A stretch of DNA of 64,000 bases from positions 352,001 through 416,000 of the forward strand of contig OY969706.1 in NCBI GenBank assembly GCA_963702095.1, in the 5' to 3' direction. This document shows, one piece after another, positions 17,114 to 50,139 of the stretch. A model generated the notes under the pieces. The model saw only the letters and a program-made list of their open reading frames with translations, was not told the DNA's origin and did not search any database. Positions within the stretch are counted from its first letter, which is position 1, and each line of letters begins with the position of its first letter. Both the position numbers and the translations under genes were made by a program. The stretch is from Candidatus Bathyarchaeota archaeon (GTDB lineage Archaea; Thermoproteota; Bathyarchaeia; Bathyarchaeales; Bathycorpusculaceae).

Positions 17114-18196
17114 TTGAACGCCATGAAAGAGAAAAAATGCTTCATCTTCCACCTCGACATGGACCACTTCTACACCGCCGTCGAACAACGGGAAAACCCA
17201 GCCCTCAAAGGCAAACCCGTCGTCGTCGGCGCAGACCCCAAAGAAGGCAAAGGCAGAGGCGTAGTGAGCACCAGCAACTATGAAGCCCGAGCAGCAGGCG
17301 TCCGCAGCGGTATGCCCATCTCGCAGGCTTGGCGACTCTGCCCCAACGCCGTTTACCTGCCGCCCAACTTTCCCCTCTACATCAAGGCATCAGCTGAAAT
17401 AATGGCGATTGCACGCCGCTATGCGGGCAAGTTTGAGCAGTGGGGTATAGACGAGGCTTTTTTGGATGTAACTGATAAAGTCGGGGATTGGGCGGAAGCT
17501 GAAGCGTTGGCGCGGCAGATCAAGGGCGAAATAAAGGAAAAGGAGCATCTTACTGCTTCAATCGGGGTTGGACCCAACAAGTTGGTGGCGAAAGTCGCCA
17601 GTGACTTCCAGAAACCCGACGGCTTAACATTTGTCAAAGAGGAGGACGCCCAACGATTCCTCGCCCCTCTGCCCGTGCGGAAGCTTTTGTGGGTGGGGCG
17701 CAAAACCGAAGCCAAACTCAAGGCGTTGGGCGTCAACACCATCGGCGACTTGGCGCGCTATGACCCTACTGCGCTTAGCTCCCTGTTTGGGGTTATGGGG
17801 GTGCAGATGCATTTGATGGCTCAGGGTTTGGACCGCAGCGAAGTCGAGGAACGGGTAGGAGTCAAAAGCATCAGCCACGAAACCACTTTTGAAGTTGACA
17901 CCTCAGATTCAGCCGCGATCCTCCAAGCGCTCGATGTCCTCTGCGTCGAGGTGCAGAAAGAAACCGACGAACAGAAACTTCTCTTCAAAACCGTAACCGT
18001 CAAAATCCGCTACCAAGGCTTTGAAACCCACACAAAAAGCAAAACCCTACCCCGCCTAACCAACCGAGTGGAGGACCTAAAGAAAACCGCCAAAGAACTG
18101 TTACTGCCCTATTTGGGGTCGGAGAGGAAAATGAGGCTTATCGGAGTCCGAGTTTCGAGTCTCCAATCCAGCGAAAAACAGAAAACCCTATTCTGA
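17114..18196 (+). CDS. dinB: Y-family DNA polymerase IV
   Basis: HLDMD.FY.AVE, NYEAR..GVRSGM, IDEAFLDV, K.ASD..KPDG. Confidence 0.95.
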   Translation: MNAMKEKKCFIFHLDMDHFYTAVEQRENPALKGKPVVVGADPKEGKGRGVVSTSNYEARAAGVRSGMPISQAWRLCPNAVYLPPNFPLYIKASAEIMAIARRYAGKFEQWGIDEAFLDVTDKVGDWAEAEALARQIKGEIKEKEHLTASIGVGPNKLVAKVASDFQKPDGLTFVKEEDAQRFLAPLPVRKLLWVGRKTEAKLKALGVNTIGDLARYDPTALSSLFGVMGVQMHLMAQGLDRSEVEERVGVKSISHETTFEVDTSDSAAILQALDVLCVEVQKETDEQKLLFKTVTVKIRYQGFETHTKSKTLPRLTNRVEDLKKTAKELLLPYLGSERKMRLIGVRVSSLQSSEKQKTLF

Positions 18197-18551: not shown

Positions 18552-19208
18552 TTAGGCCTCATATTCTGTTGGGTCAGCTACGCCTGCTTCAACAAACGCT
18601 TTTTTGCGGTTTACACAAGACTCGCATCTGCCACAGTGTTTGGCACCGTCAAGGTAGCATGACCACGTCAACTCGAAGGGCACACCCAGTTTGGCGCCCT
18701 CTTTGATTAGCTCTGACTTTTTACCGCCGCTAAAGGGTGCTTTGATGGTGATTTCTTGGCAGGTGCCCAGTCGGGCGGCTTTTTCGAAAGCTTCGTAGAA
18801 TTCTCGGCGGCAATCGGGGTAGAAGGGTTCGTCGCTGCCTTGTGCGCCGTAGAAGATGTGGGTTGCTTCTACGGTGACTGCGTATGCGACGGCTGCTGAG
18901 AGGAAGATGGCGTTGCGGAAGGGTACGATGATTGGGCTGCTGAACTCCGCTGTTAAGGGGATGTCGCGGTTGACCAGTGAGGTGGCGCCGCTGAAGATGT
19001 CTTTGAGGTTTGAGAGGTCGATGGTTTTTGTGGTTGTGCCAAGTGTTTGGGCGATTTTTTGGGCTGCCTCTGTTTCTTTGACGGCGATTTGGCCGTAGTT
19101 GAAGGTGATGGGGTAGATTTGGTAGCCATGATTTTTTGCCCAGTATGCGACGGTGGCTGAGTCTGGACCGCCGCTGAGCACTATGACGCATTTCATGTTT
19201 TGTCTCAT
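18552..19208 (-). CDS. queC: 7-cyano-7-deazaguanine (preQ0) synthase
   Basis: SGG.DS, VPFRN, YPDCR, TWSCY and CGRCESC motifs. Confidence 0.95.
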   Translation of the reverse strand: MRQNMKCVIVLSGGPDSATVAYWAKNHGYQIYPITFNYGQIAVKETEAAQKIAQTLGTTTKTIDLSNLKDIFSGATSLVNRDIPLTAEFSSPIIVPFRNAIFLSAAVAYAVTVEATHIFYGAQGSDEPFYPDCRREFYEAFEKAARLGTCQEITIKAPFSGGKKSELIKEGAKLGVPFELTWSCYLDGAKHCGRCESCVNRKKAFVEAGVADPTEYEA

Positions 19209-19726
19209 GGTTTTTTTGCTCCATAATTTGTTTGTGTTTCAAACCACCGTTGCAAGCCCGCTTTTTTCAGCAGCTTGAACAGTGGCCAACCGATCAGCAC
19301 GCTTGCGATTAGGTTTCCAGCCACGACGTATGCGATGCTAATTGGTAACGGTATGTTGTAGGGTGCGGATAACATCCAGCCTACAGTAGTGCCCAAGACC
19401 AATGAGTAAGCTACGCATGTGGCGAGTACAGAGTAGTCGTTGTGTGTTTTCTTGTAAACATAGTAGACGACAAACGCCATGACAAACGATGGTATAGTGT
19501 TAAGTAAGTCAATTACGCCAAGGGTTGAGAAAAGGTTGGCGATGAACACTCCTAAGGTGTGTCCCAAAACACCTGCTATACCCAGCAGGGGAACAGCAGC
19601 AACCATAGAATCTGCTATTCTGATATTGAGGGGTCCATAAGAGATGAATCCGAGGGCAACAACTAGTGCCACATACAATGCAGCATAAACTGCCATAAGA
19701 GCTATTTCTTTACTTCGTAGTTTCAA
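19205..19726 (-). CDS. queT: QueT-family (ECF S-component) deazaguanine precursor transporter
   Basis: A.YAALYV, ISYGP.N.RIAD, G..IAN..S..G..D; overlaps queC start. Confidence 0.85.
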   Translation of the reverse strand: MKLRSKEIALMAVYAALYVALVVALGFISYGPLNIRIADSMVAAVPLLGIAGVLGHTLGVFIANLFSTLGVIDLLNTIPSFVMAFVVYYVYKKTHNDYSVLATCVAYSLVLGTTVGWMLSAPYNIPLPISIAYVVAGNLIASVLIGWPLFKLLKKAGLQRWFETQTNYGAKKP

Positions 19727-19735
19727 ATGTTATTT

Positions 19736-19802
19736 GCCTCCCAACTCCGGGTTTTATATTATTTGGCGCAACGGGTGGGAAGCTCCACTCACGCGCCAGC
19801 TC
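19736..19802 (-). promoter_or_regulatory. Candidate riboswitch-like leader of queT-queC
   Basis: Hairpin UGGCGC..GUGG-AGCUUC-CCAC..GCGCCA, A-rich linker, then GGAGUU complementary to the loop, adjoining SD GGGAGG. Confidence 0.5.
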
Positions 19803-19970
19803 GCAGTAAACAGCAGAGTTGCCTAAAAACGTTTAGGAAAGCACTCTGGGAGTTGAGAGTCTTTTTAATGTTGGCGAAATATTAATTAGGCGCACAGAAA
19901 GATTACATGATGCATCTTCATCCAGTGGATGGCATTCCGCACAAACGGAGTTTTAAGGGAGCACAAAACT

Positions 19971-20615
19971 ATGTCACAAAATAATACAGCTAGCCAACTA
20001 GTCCTTAAAGGAACAACTACAATCGGCGTCGTCTGCAAAGACGGCGTAATCTTAGCTTCAGACACCCGCGTAACCATGGGCTTCTATGTGGCACATAAAT
20101 TCGGCAAAAAAGTCTACAAAATCGACGACCACATCGGCATGACCATAGCCGGCACAGTCGCCGACGCTCAACGCGTCGTAGACATCCTAATTGCTAACGC
20201 TCAGCTGTATAAAATCAACCTGAACCGCCCCATCCCCGTGGCTTCCGCTGCACGTTTAGTCGCCAACCTCCTGTTCTCAGCAAGATATGTTCCACTGGCA
20301 ACACAGGTTCTTGTCGGCGGCGTAGACAACACTGGACCCCACGTTTTCAACTTGGATCCATACGGCAGCTTAAACGAAGAAAAAATGATCTCCACCGGCA
20401 GCGGTTCACCCATCGCGCTTGGTGTACTTGAAGACAAGTACCGCGAGGGTATGACCATCCAGGAAACTTTGCCCACTATCGCCAGAGCGGTGAATGCCGC
20501 CATGAAACGTGACGTAGCAAGCGGCAACAGCTACAATATCATCGTCATCGACGAGCATGGTTACAAAGAGTTGTCTGAAGAGGAAAAAGCTAAACTGCTC
20601 AAAGCAGGAAGTTAG
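19971..20615 (+). CDS. psmB: Proteasome subunit beta
   Basis: Propeptide cleavage site LKG/TTT, GSGS, RD.ASG; probable start ATG 19971. Confidence 0.95.
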   Translation: MSQNNTASQLVLKGTTTIGVVCKDGVILASDTRVTMGFYVAHKFGKKVYKIDDHIGMTIAGTVADAQRVVDILIANAQLYKINLNRPIPVASAARLVANLLFSARYVPLATQVLVGGVDNTGPHVFNLDPYGSLNEEKMISTGSGSPIALGVLEDKYREGMTIQETLPTIARAVNAAMKRDVASGNSYNIIVIDEHGYKELSEEEKAKLLKAGS

Positions 20616-50061: not shown

Positions 50062-50139
50062 GGGGCCTTCGGCTAGCTTGGTCTAGGCTTGTAGACTTGG
50101 GCTCTATAGACTCCGGTTCAAATCCGGGAGGCCCCACCA
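50062..50139 (+). tRNA. tRNA-Pro(TGG), CCA encoded
   Basis: GGGGCCT/AGGCCCC acceptor, GTAGA-CTTGGGC-TCTAT anticodon arm, TCCGG-TTCAAAT-CCGGG. Confidence 0.93.

Follow-up and report, generated by a model that had tools for sequence, protein, structure and literature searches.

Does an archaeal importer of 7-deazaguanines carry its own RNA switch? The question is raised by a short leader in the genome of Candidatus Bathyarchaeota archaeon (GenBank assembly GCA_963702095.1), which is a single contig of 2.94 Mb with an estimated completeness of 90%. We analysed 64,000 nucleotides of this contig (OY969706.1, positions 352,001 to 416,000; hereafter the window), whose minus strand has an element of about 67 nt (19802..19736) with a TATA-like box on its 5' side and the UUG start codon of queT on its 3' side. 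We take queT to encode the S component of an energy-coupling factor (ECF)-type transporter, a predicted 7-deazaguanine importer; the next gene, whose open reading frame (ORF) overlaps the end of queT by 4 nt, is queC, encoding 7-cyano-7-deazaguanine (preQ0) synthase. A first-pass annotation of this DNA had suggested a preQ0/preQ1-type riboswitch ahead of the two genes. Their identities are borne out by Pfam (Table 1), and the leader had been transcribed correctly on the minus strand, save that the spacer between the Shine-Dalgarno (SD) sequence and UUG is 10 nt rather than 9. As judged by comparison with related leaders, the element is a stem of 5-6 bp (P1) combined with an H-type pseudoknot in which about 11 bp cover the ribosome-binding site. 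It represents a strongly supported and apparently undescribed family of cis-regulatory RNAs of the Thermoproteota, and we think it probable, from the comparative evidence set out below, that this family is a riboswitch class not described before, which switches translation OFF on sensing a 7-deazaguanine, preQ0 being the likeliest.

Table 1. Coordinates of the queT leader, its genes and the second leader type (motif 2) discussed in the text.
Feature	Position	Strand	Basis or remark
TATA-like box TTTTTAGG (predicted queT promoter)	19829..19822	minus	read from sequence
P1 5' strand GGCGC	19797..19793	minus	pair counts, 97 sequences
P1 3' strand GCGCC	19769..19765	minus	pair counts, 97 sequences
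Optional P1 extensions	U19798-A19764 and wobble G19792.U19770	minus	
L1, 5' half of hairpin loop, UGAGUGGA	19791..19784	minus	conserved GUGAG word begins at G19792
Pseudoknot 5' strand, anti-SD, GCUUCCCACCCG	19783..19772	minus	RNAduplex, covariation, cognate/non-cognate tests
L2, UU between pseudoknot strand and P1 3' strand	19771..19770	minus	
L3, A-rich linker ending AAAACC	19764..19750	minus	invariant AAA and two invariant unpaired C
Pseudoknot 3' strand CGGAGUUGGGAGGC	19749..19736	minus	contains SD
Shine-Dalgarno GGGAGG	19742..19737	minus	inside pseudoknot 3' strand
UUG start codon of queT	19726..19724	minus	ORF list
queT, 173-aa ORF	19205..19726	minus	Pfam PF06177 QueT, 4.5e-23
queC	18552..19208	minus	Pfam PF06508 QueC, 3.5e-61
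Motif 2	L028:1454-1495, L030:1454-1495, L031:2018-2060(-), L160:583-624(-)		
Motif 2	L161:258-299, L163:253-294, L206:134-175(-)		

About 50 relatives carry the same words upstream of queT, with the spacer from promoter to stem and the tip of the hairpin varying. A covariance model (R1) was built from 45 queT leaders of relatives, and the 97 distinct sequences that it matches at E up to 1e-5 make up the alignment A3, whose columns give the pair and column numbers used here. P1 has an invariant core of three pairs (G-C/C-G/G-C) set between two pairs that covary: 6/48 (GC 65, AU 21, GU 4, CG 1, UA 1) and 10/44 (GC 84, CG 13). The outermost pair, 5/49, is formed in just 53 of 95 cells, and P1 is therefore read as 5 bp with an optional sixth. 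In the second helix, CCG (columns 38-40) pairs with CGG (66-68) in 96% of cases and columns 31-35 pair with the SD (81-86) in 90%; compensatory pair types are found at 32/85 (UA 59, CG 12), 33/84 (CG 55, UG 22, UA 12) and 35/81 (CG 76, UA 7, UG 4), while 22/88 and 23/87, 3' of the SD core, each occur as six pair types. Read in this way, the conserved pseudoknot covers CGG, then the SD together with 1-3 bases 3' of it. Over the whole structure, none of 500 shuffles equals the real alignment in the fraction of cells paired, in the count of double changes or in covariation score, and slid registers pair at 44-55% against 90% in the true one. Around these helices the connecting segments are variable: L1 measures ~8-20 nt among relatives and differs in length and sequence beyond its start, L2 is 1-2 nt, and the linker between the P1 3' strand and the SD strand is unstructured, A-rich and 9-17 nt long, its upstream part varying from ~3 to 11 nt.

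Column alignment underrates the pseudoknot helix because its register shifts between lineages, and the duplex energy of each loop with its own tail was therefore compared with that of the same loop with the tails of other sequences. For 189 distinct combinations from 205 unique sequences, cognate loop-tail duplexes stand at -16.9 kcal/mol and permuted ones at -14.66 kcal/mol, with none of 5000 permutations as low. The difference persists when one sequence is taken for each of 51 distinct loops (-16.13 vs -13.22 kcal/mol; again 0/5000) and in a run on genomes only (cognate -16.8, permuted -14.65, shuffled loops -11.3 kcal/mol). The loop-SD duplex has a median length of 11 bp; in the window itself the two strands form 12 bp at -18.2 kcal/mol (RNAduplex), with all six SD bases paired. 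Lineages carry their own complementary words, such as UUUCCGAC/GUCGGAA, CCUUCCA/UGGAAGG, CCCUCU/AGAGGG, GCCCUCCU/AGGAGGGC, CCACCUCC/GGAGGUGG and CAUCUCC/GGAGAUG. A variant group (L104, L115, L120, L123, L126, L130 and L132) has no CGG, shows AAAA before the SD and pairs its loop with the SD alone.

These covariation and duplex tests support the proposal of an H-type pseudoknot that reaches across an A-rich linker and occludes the ribosome-binding site, and the concern raised with it, that the structure might not be conserved in related queT leaders, is answered by its presence in 96 of the 151 genomes sampled across the class. The register first drawn has to be given up. A pairing of AGCUUC with GGAGUU directly beside the SD is possible in the window sequence alone, whereas relatives pair the loop with CGG and the SD, so that the SD lies inside the helix. 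The pairing breaks down where a lineage has CGGUG or CGGCG in its tail, the CGGUG lineages lacking the first GGAG, and the fourth base of CGGNG varies between A, U, G and C, as a bulge would. The inner GUGG/CCAC hairpin of the same proposal is weak and has no lineage-specific covariation. Three other candidate pairings were rejected: the tail ACCC with a 5' GGGU, where the window and 12 other A3 sequences have GCGCGU with an unchanged tail; GUU with the linker AAC, since GAU and GCU variants keep the same linker; and a local CCC/GGG hairpin at the SD, which is 97% paired yet does not covary.

The position of the element agrees with a role in the queT-queC transcript. A TATA-like box had been placed about 25 nt upstream of the hairpin; the box is present, and 23-24 nt of variable sequence separate its end from P1. 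Relatives keep it as TTTTTAGG, TTTTTATG or TTTTTAAG, 123 of 257 distinct upstream regions have a TTTWWW word whose start lies 31-36 nt ahead of the first pair of P1, and A+T content is maximal at -35..-26 relative to P1. We infer that this word acts as the queT promoter. In archaea the centre of the TATA box lies ~26-27 nt ahead of the transcription start; from this distance the mRNA should begin a few bases before P1, and the element should form the extreme 5' end of the queT-queC transcript. At the aligned start-codon position, relatives have ATG, GTG or TTG. The 3' end of the host 16S rRNA reads GGAUCACCUCCU, with CACCUCCU as its 3'-end word, and a crude count finds SD-like words before 259 of 1081 long ORFs as against 60 of 1081 in a control window, which makes SD-led initiation plausible in this organism. 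With its arms forming an inverted repeat (GGCGS...SCGCC) near a promoter, P1 might also be thought of as a DNA operator bound by a transcription factor. We regard this as highly improbable: the spacing of the arms is not fixed (loop plus junction range from ~16 to 30 nt among relatives), the loop has a conserved pairing partner at the SD, and the element is downstream of the TATA-like box. In addition, G.U pairs are frequent on this strand (4 GU at 6/48, 22 UG at 33/84, 17 GU at 22/88 and 16 UG at 23/87), which fits an RNA rather than a DNA site.

Searches with R1 show how widely the element occurs and what it accompanies. In the host genome the model has a single match, the element described here, at 78.1 bits. 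Across the class it matches 96/151 genomes, nearly always once per genome and mostly in genomes outside its seed; across the phylum it matches 33/151, and families outside the class with matches include f44 (9/15), f56 (3/3) and f60 (2/2). Matches at or below ~25 bits are unreliable, and the weak ones at L106-L108, L129 and L131 are unlike the motif. A degenerate pattern taken from the alignment finds the motif in at least 120 metagenome stretches. A QueT-family frame follows the element directly in 93 of the 97 A3 sequences. In the remaining four (L071, L073, L074 and L083, all of family f35) a multi-pass membrane ORF of 229-234 aa takes its place; it has no match in Pfam or NCBIfam, aligns weakly to the QueT profile (hhalign 84%, E 7e-6) and may represent a new branch of 7-deazaguanine importers. 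Among the matches listed, 74 metagenome loci extend 300 nt or more downstream and 72 of them have QueT, which also follows 238 of 252 distinct instances defined by a regular expression that is looser than R1 and includes a few false places. QueC comes directly after QueT in 68 of the 140 instances with at least 1400 nt downstream. Genomes that carry two copies of the motif have two QueT genes. A conserved, structured 5' leader that covaries and is tied to the genes of one pathway is what is generally expected of a riboswitch, and the element shows each of these features.

What distinguishes the element from a plain occluding helix is its set of fixed bases. Seventeen columns are invariant in 97/97 sequences, 8 of them outside the counted helices. 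They comprise the P1 core (G7, C8 and G9 with C45, G46 and C47); G11 and U12 directly after the P1 5' strand, ahead of the less strictly kept columns 13 (G in 89/97) and 14 (A in 71/97); C38 and G40 of the loop; U43 (97/97), which with column 42 (U in 92/97) directly precedes the P1 3' strand; and A60, A61, A62, C64, C65 and C66 in the linker and the first pseudoknot pair. In the RNAfold drawing G11 and U43 can lengthen P1 by a wobble pair. We infer that the invariant junction bases form the ligand pocket: G11-U12, the UU, the AAA and the CC would meet where the two helices join and enclose a guanine-like ligand, C64 and C65 being candidates to pair with its Watson-Crick face and the AAA run lying in the groove of the invariant P1 core. 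The same bases argue against a constitutive translational damper, or a structure dependent on temperature or ions, that tunes QueT synthesis and senses no metabolite. Such a device would account for the strength of the 11-bp loop-SD duplex and for the lack of a supported alternative helix; it has no need of an invariant P1 core, an AAA-N-CCC linker or GU/UU junction bases, features that are kept across the classes of the phylum while the helices covary, and we judge it improbable.

The fixed bases also invite comparison with the three known preQ1 riboswitch classes, for which we rely on excerpts of a 2024 review of the family (PMC11625349). Rfam 15 at gathering thresholds gives no PreQ1 match anywhere in the window; its sole match there is a tRNA at 50062..50136 (+). 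At E up to 10, regions of 401 and 101 nt around the element return chance matches only (MIR2275, CRISPR-DR22 and Ms_IGR-8), and at E up to 1 the loci of nine relatives return nothing. By Rfam the element is not a member of preQ1-I (RF00522), preQ1-II (RF01054) or preQ1-III (RF02680), in agreement with the first-pass annotation, which had recognised none of the three.

In topology it resembles class I, with which it shares the H-type pseudoknot, a 5-bp P1, a loop that pairs with the 3' tail, an A-rich tail expected to run along P1, and a place before queT and queC (PMC11625349). It could be argued on these grounds that the element is merely a diverged class I riboswitch, in which a long insertion in L1 carries the extended anti-SD, and hence no new class. 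The order of the parts is indeed the same (P1, loop strand, P1 3' strand, A-rich tail, tail strand), and the tail word AAAACCCGG is nearly that of a small leader found before a QueT paralogue, described below, in which UU follows the P1 5' strand and AC precedes the P1 3' strand, both class I features (PMC11625349). In class I, UC or AC directly precedes the P1 3' strand and the cytosine pairs with the ligand (PMC11625349); our element has UU there (92/97 and 97/97) and thus lacks the cytosine that gives class I its specificity. Its length is roughly double, its L1 has ~8-20 nt where class I has 2-3, L2 is 1-2 nt, just UU in the window, and the pseudoknot helix has a median of 11 bp as against 3-4. 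As given above, Rfam finds no PreQ1 match on the 101-nt or 401-nt region or at the nine relatives' loci, and it finds none in the small paralogue leader. We consider a diverged class I rather unlikely.

This small leader, motif 2, is a second and unrelated-looking pseudoknot leader, found in genus g28 and in part of the genomes of the host's own genus before a QueT paralogue that is 27-33% identical to the QueT of the window. It reads GGUAG-UUU-CCG-UAUAUAAC-CUACC-UUAAAAAACCCGG, the tail also being given as UUAAAAAAC(C)CGG, and is a candidate H-type pseudoknot of 40 nt whose UU behind P1, AC ahead of the P1 3' strand and A-rich tail are class-I-like. Motif 2 resembles the element in that an A-rich stretch followed by CC(C)GG pairs with a loop CCG, and in its host group and kind of gene; it differs in its length of 40 nt, in having UUU as L1 and in an L2 of 8 nt that ends in AC. 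It has no Rfam match, and its model (R2) matches 2/151 class genomes, in one case weakly. In genome G030 both leaders occur, each ahead of a different QueT gene (L163, L164). Known riboswitch ligands often have several classes of leader.

In action the element is closer to class II, which also lies before queT, acts on translation and uses the whole SD as one strand of a pseudoknot beneath the presumed ligand site (PMC11625349); in our leader all six SD bases fall within the predicted duplex. Class II is described from queT leaders of Streptococcaceae and Lactobacillales, and the excerpts report it from Bacillota only; it folds as an HLout pseudoknot with P1-P4 and an inserted P4 hairpin (PMC11625349). 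The element has a plain A-rich linker in place of P4 between its helices, carries its variable extra piece in L1, measures ~65-70 nt and belongs to archaeal hosts. Class III likewise occurs before queT and has an anti-SD/SD helix in its model, with five helices in ~100 nt and the SD helix far from the pocket (PMC11625349), whereas our element comprises two helices in ~67 nt with the SD helix continuous with the junction. The element works most like class II, and its topology and A-rich tail resemble class I.

Which member of the 7-deazaguanine family would such a switch sense? The archaeal TGT inserts preQ0 into tRNA on the way to archaeosine. The host genome has one TGT, in a 552-aa frame of the size of archaeal ArcTGT, and no QueF was found in it; to our knowledge preQ1 has no use without QueF or a bacterial TGT. 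On both counts preQ0 is a sensible ligand, as had been suggested, and excerpts of two papers have ArcTGT using preQ0 (PMC5372724, PMC4770233). Searches of the host genome found no QueD (PF01242), and for QueE only matches to the radical-SAM core (20-33 bits against cut-offs of 206 and 300 in two models). The presence of queT-queC without queD and queE suggests salvage of 7-carboxy-7-deazaguanine (CDG) or preQ0 rather than de novo synthesis, and with QueC beside the importer CDG may also be imported and converted to preQ0; the text of PMC11130926 mentions neither CDG nor a riboswitch. In the class sample QueD is found in 13/151 genomes, QueT in 112/151 and the motif in 96/151, and just 4 of the 13 QueD genomes (G100, G108, G114 and G169) have the motif. 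From the rarity of QueD beside the common QueT and motif these archaea look like salvagers, and most of them seem to lack de novo synthesis. The simplest interpretation is an OFF switch under end-product control by preQ0, the most likely ligand. We propose that ligand binding would lock the pseudoknot and block initiation of translation of the importer QueT and, where present, of QueC, and that the element would in this way set the amount of salvage machinery that is made.

The SD could also be controlled by a partner other than a metabolite, if the leader were recognised by a protein or another RNA such as ArcTGT, another RNA-binding regulator or a tRNA. Invariant unpaired bases fit a protein site as well as a metabolite pocket, the pseudoknot looks stable unaided, and the weak match of R1 to a tRNA (L109) shows that P1 and the inner hairpin are somewhat like an acceptor and T-arm. 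That match scores 25 bits as against 30-90 for real members; no regulator gene accompanies the element, whose neighbours are just queT and queC; and it precedes transporters of a purine-like base, a ligand family that three bacterial RNA classes sense directly according to the excerpts (PMC11625349). We hold recognition by a protein or RNA partner to be unlikely, though worth keeping in mind.

Against the reading as a preQ0-sensing OFF riboswitch stand several observations. The folding energy of the leader is unremarkable and not above chance: the 67-nt stretch folds at -21.7 kcal/mol (z -1.27; 25/200 shuffles fold as well) and the longer leader at a z of -1.08 against shuffles. We have dropped it as an argument. 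The shuffle tests overstate significance, since the genomes compared are related and thus not independent. Both the SD and its partner are tied to the 16S tail, and any anti-SD would show some of the SD/anti-SD complementarity seen here. A second switch state is also unsupported. A nested inner helix of GUGAG with CUCCYAC is 90% paired by columns (pair 14/32: AU 57, GC 18) and is weak (mean -4.7 kcal/mol), with no lineage-specific complementarity: cognate helices stand at -4.46 and permuted ones at -4.55 kcal/mol, and 3628/5000 permutations are as low. For this reason we read the element as a device in which the pseudoknot closes on the SD, comparable to preQ1-II or translational preQ1-I, and not as a switch between two hairpins. 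The pseudoknot duplex, at a calculated ~-17 kcal/mol, looks stable by itself, so that closure without ligand is conceivable. At least two of the 96 class matches are false or doubtful (in G054 the 3' half of a tRNA, 25 bits; in G134 a match of 20.8 bits), and the queT genes of families f20 (7/7) and f21 (5/5) lack this leader. Finally, CDG, preQ1, guanine or another compound may be the ligand.

Other sequences before queT in these archaea may be recorded here. The weak match L109 (G054:C21) comes from a tRNA whose variable arm is long; it covers the 3' half, with the T-arm GGGUUCAAAUCCC and GGCGCCA at the end. In family f21 (L199, L201 and L202) a tRNA gene of the same kind lies ~35 nt upstream of queT, replacing the motif. 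The queT leaders at L162 (G054:C3) and L204 (G064:C1), from other families, share a longer pattern of ~110 nt, GGCGGGU-8 nt-CCGCC-(G/U)UUACC followed by GGAUGAUGGG, GAAAUC and CCGCAGAAGUGGG; they have no Rfam match, and the pattern may be a third type of leader or a rebuilt form of the motif. At L205 (G066:C29; family f18) a sequence resembling a C/D-box small RNA stands just upstream of queT (Rfam sR47, 27.8 bits, below the gathering score). Within the window, a proteasome beta subunit ORF (19929..20615, +) diverges from queT; its listed ATG at 19929 may be too far upstream, and a GGGAG word precedes an in-frame ATG at 19971 by 9 nt. On the other side of the two genes lies an ORF for a DinB/Y-family polymerase (17114..18196, +; IMS domains, 3.3e-51).

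Riboswitches are scarce in archaea, and few of the known classes are used there. These are mainly those for thiamine pyrophosphate (TPP) and fluoride, with occasional flavin mononucleotide (FMN), Mg2+-I and guanidine-II riboswitches, and all are shared with bacteria, according to excerpts of one survey (McCown et al. 2017, PMC5473149). Our literature searches, which did not cover supplementary motif lists, found no paper on an archaeal preQ-type riboswitch and none describing this element; the word 'archaea' is absent from the 2024 review of the preQ1 family (PMC11625349), and a 2026 preprint on intergenic clusters leaves preQ1 and queuosine unmentioned. Against this background the element may be the first archaea-native riboswitch class, a preQ0 sensor widespread in Bathyarchaeia and other Thermoproteota that shuts off translation of a 7-deazaguanine importer through a pseudoknot covering the SD and has a ligand pocket unlike those of the three bacterial preQ1 classes. 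This fuller claim is made from sequence comparison and we advance it tentatively, as a serious possibility that stops a little short of probable. If it is true, archaea evolved, or kept, metabolite-sensing RNAs of their own, and the element would be a fourth, structurally distinct solution for the recognition of 7-deazaguanines, as well as a small and well-defined RNA for testing how preQ0 is discriminated from preQ1. It would also give direct evidence of SD-based translational control in an uncultured lineage. QueT(-QueC) salvage would be flagged as a common trait of the Bathyarchaeia, and the spread of the motif together with the rarity of queD would mark most of them as dependent on 7-deazaguanines scavenged in sediments and soils.

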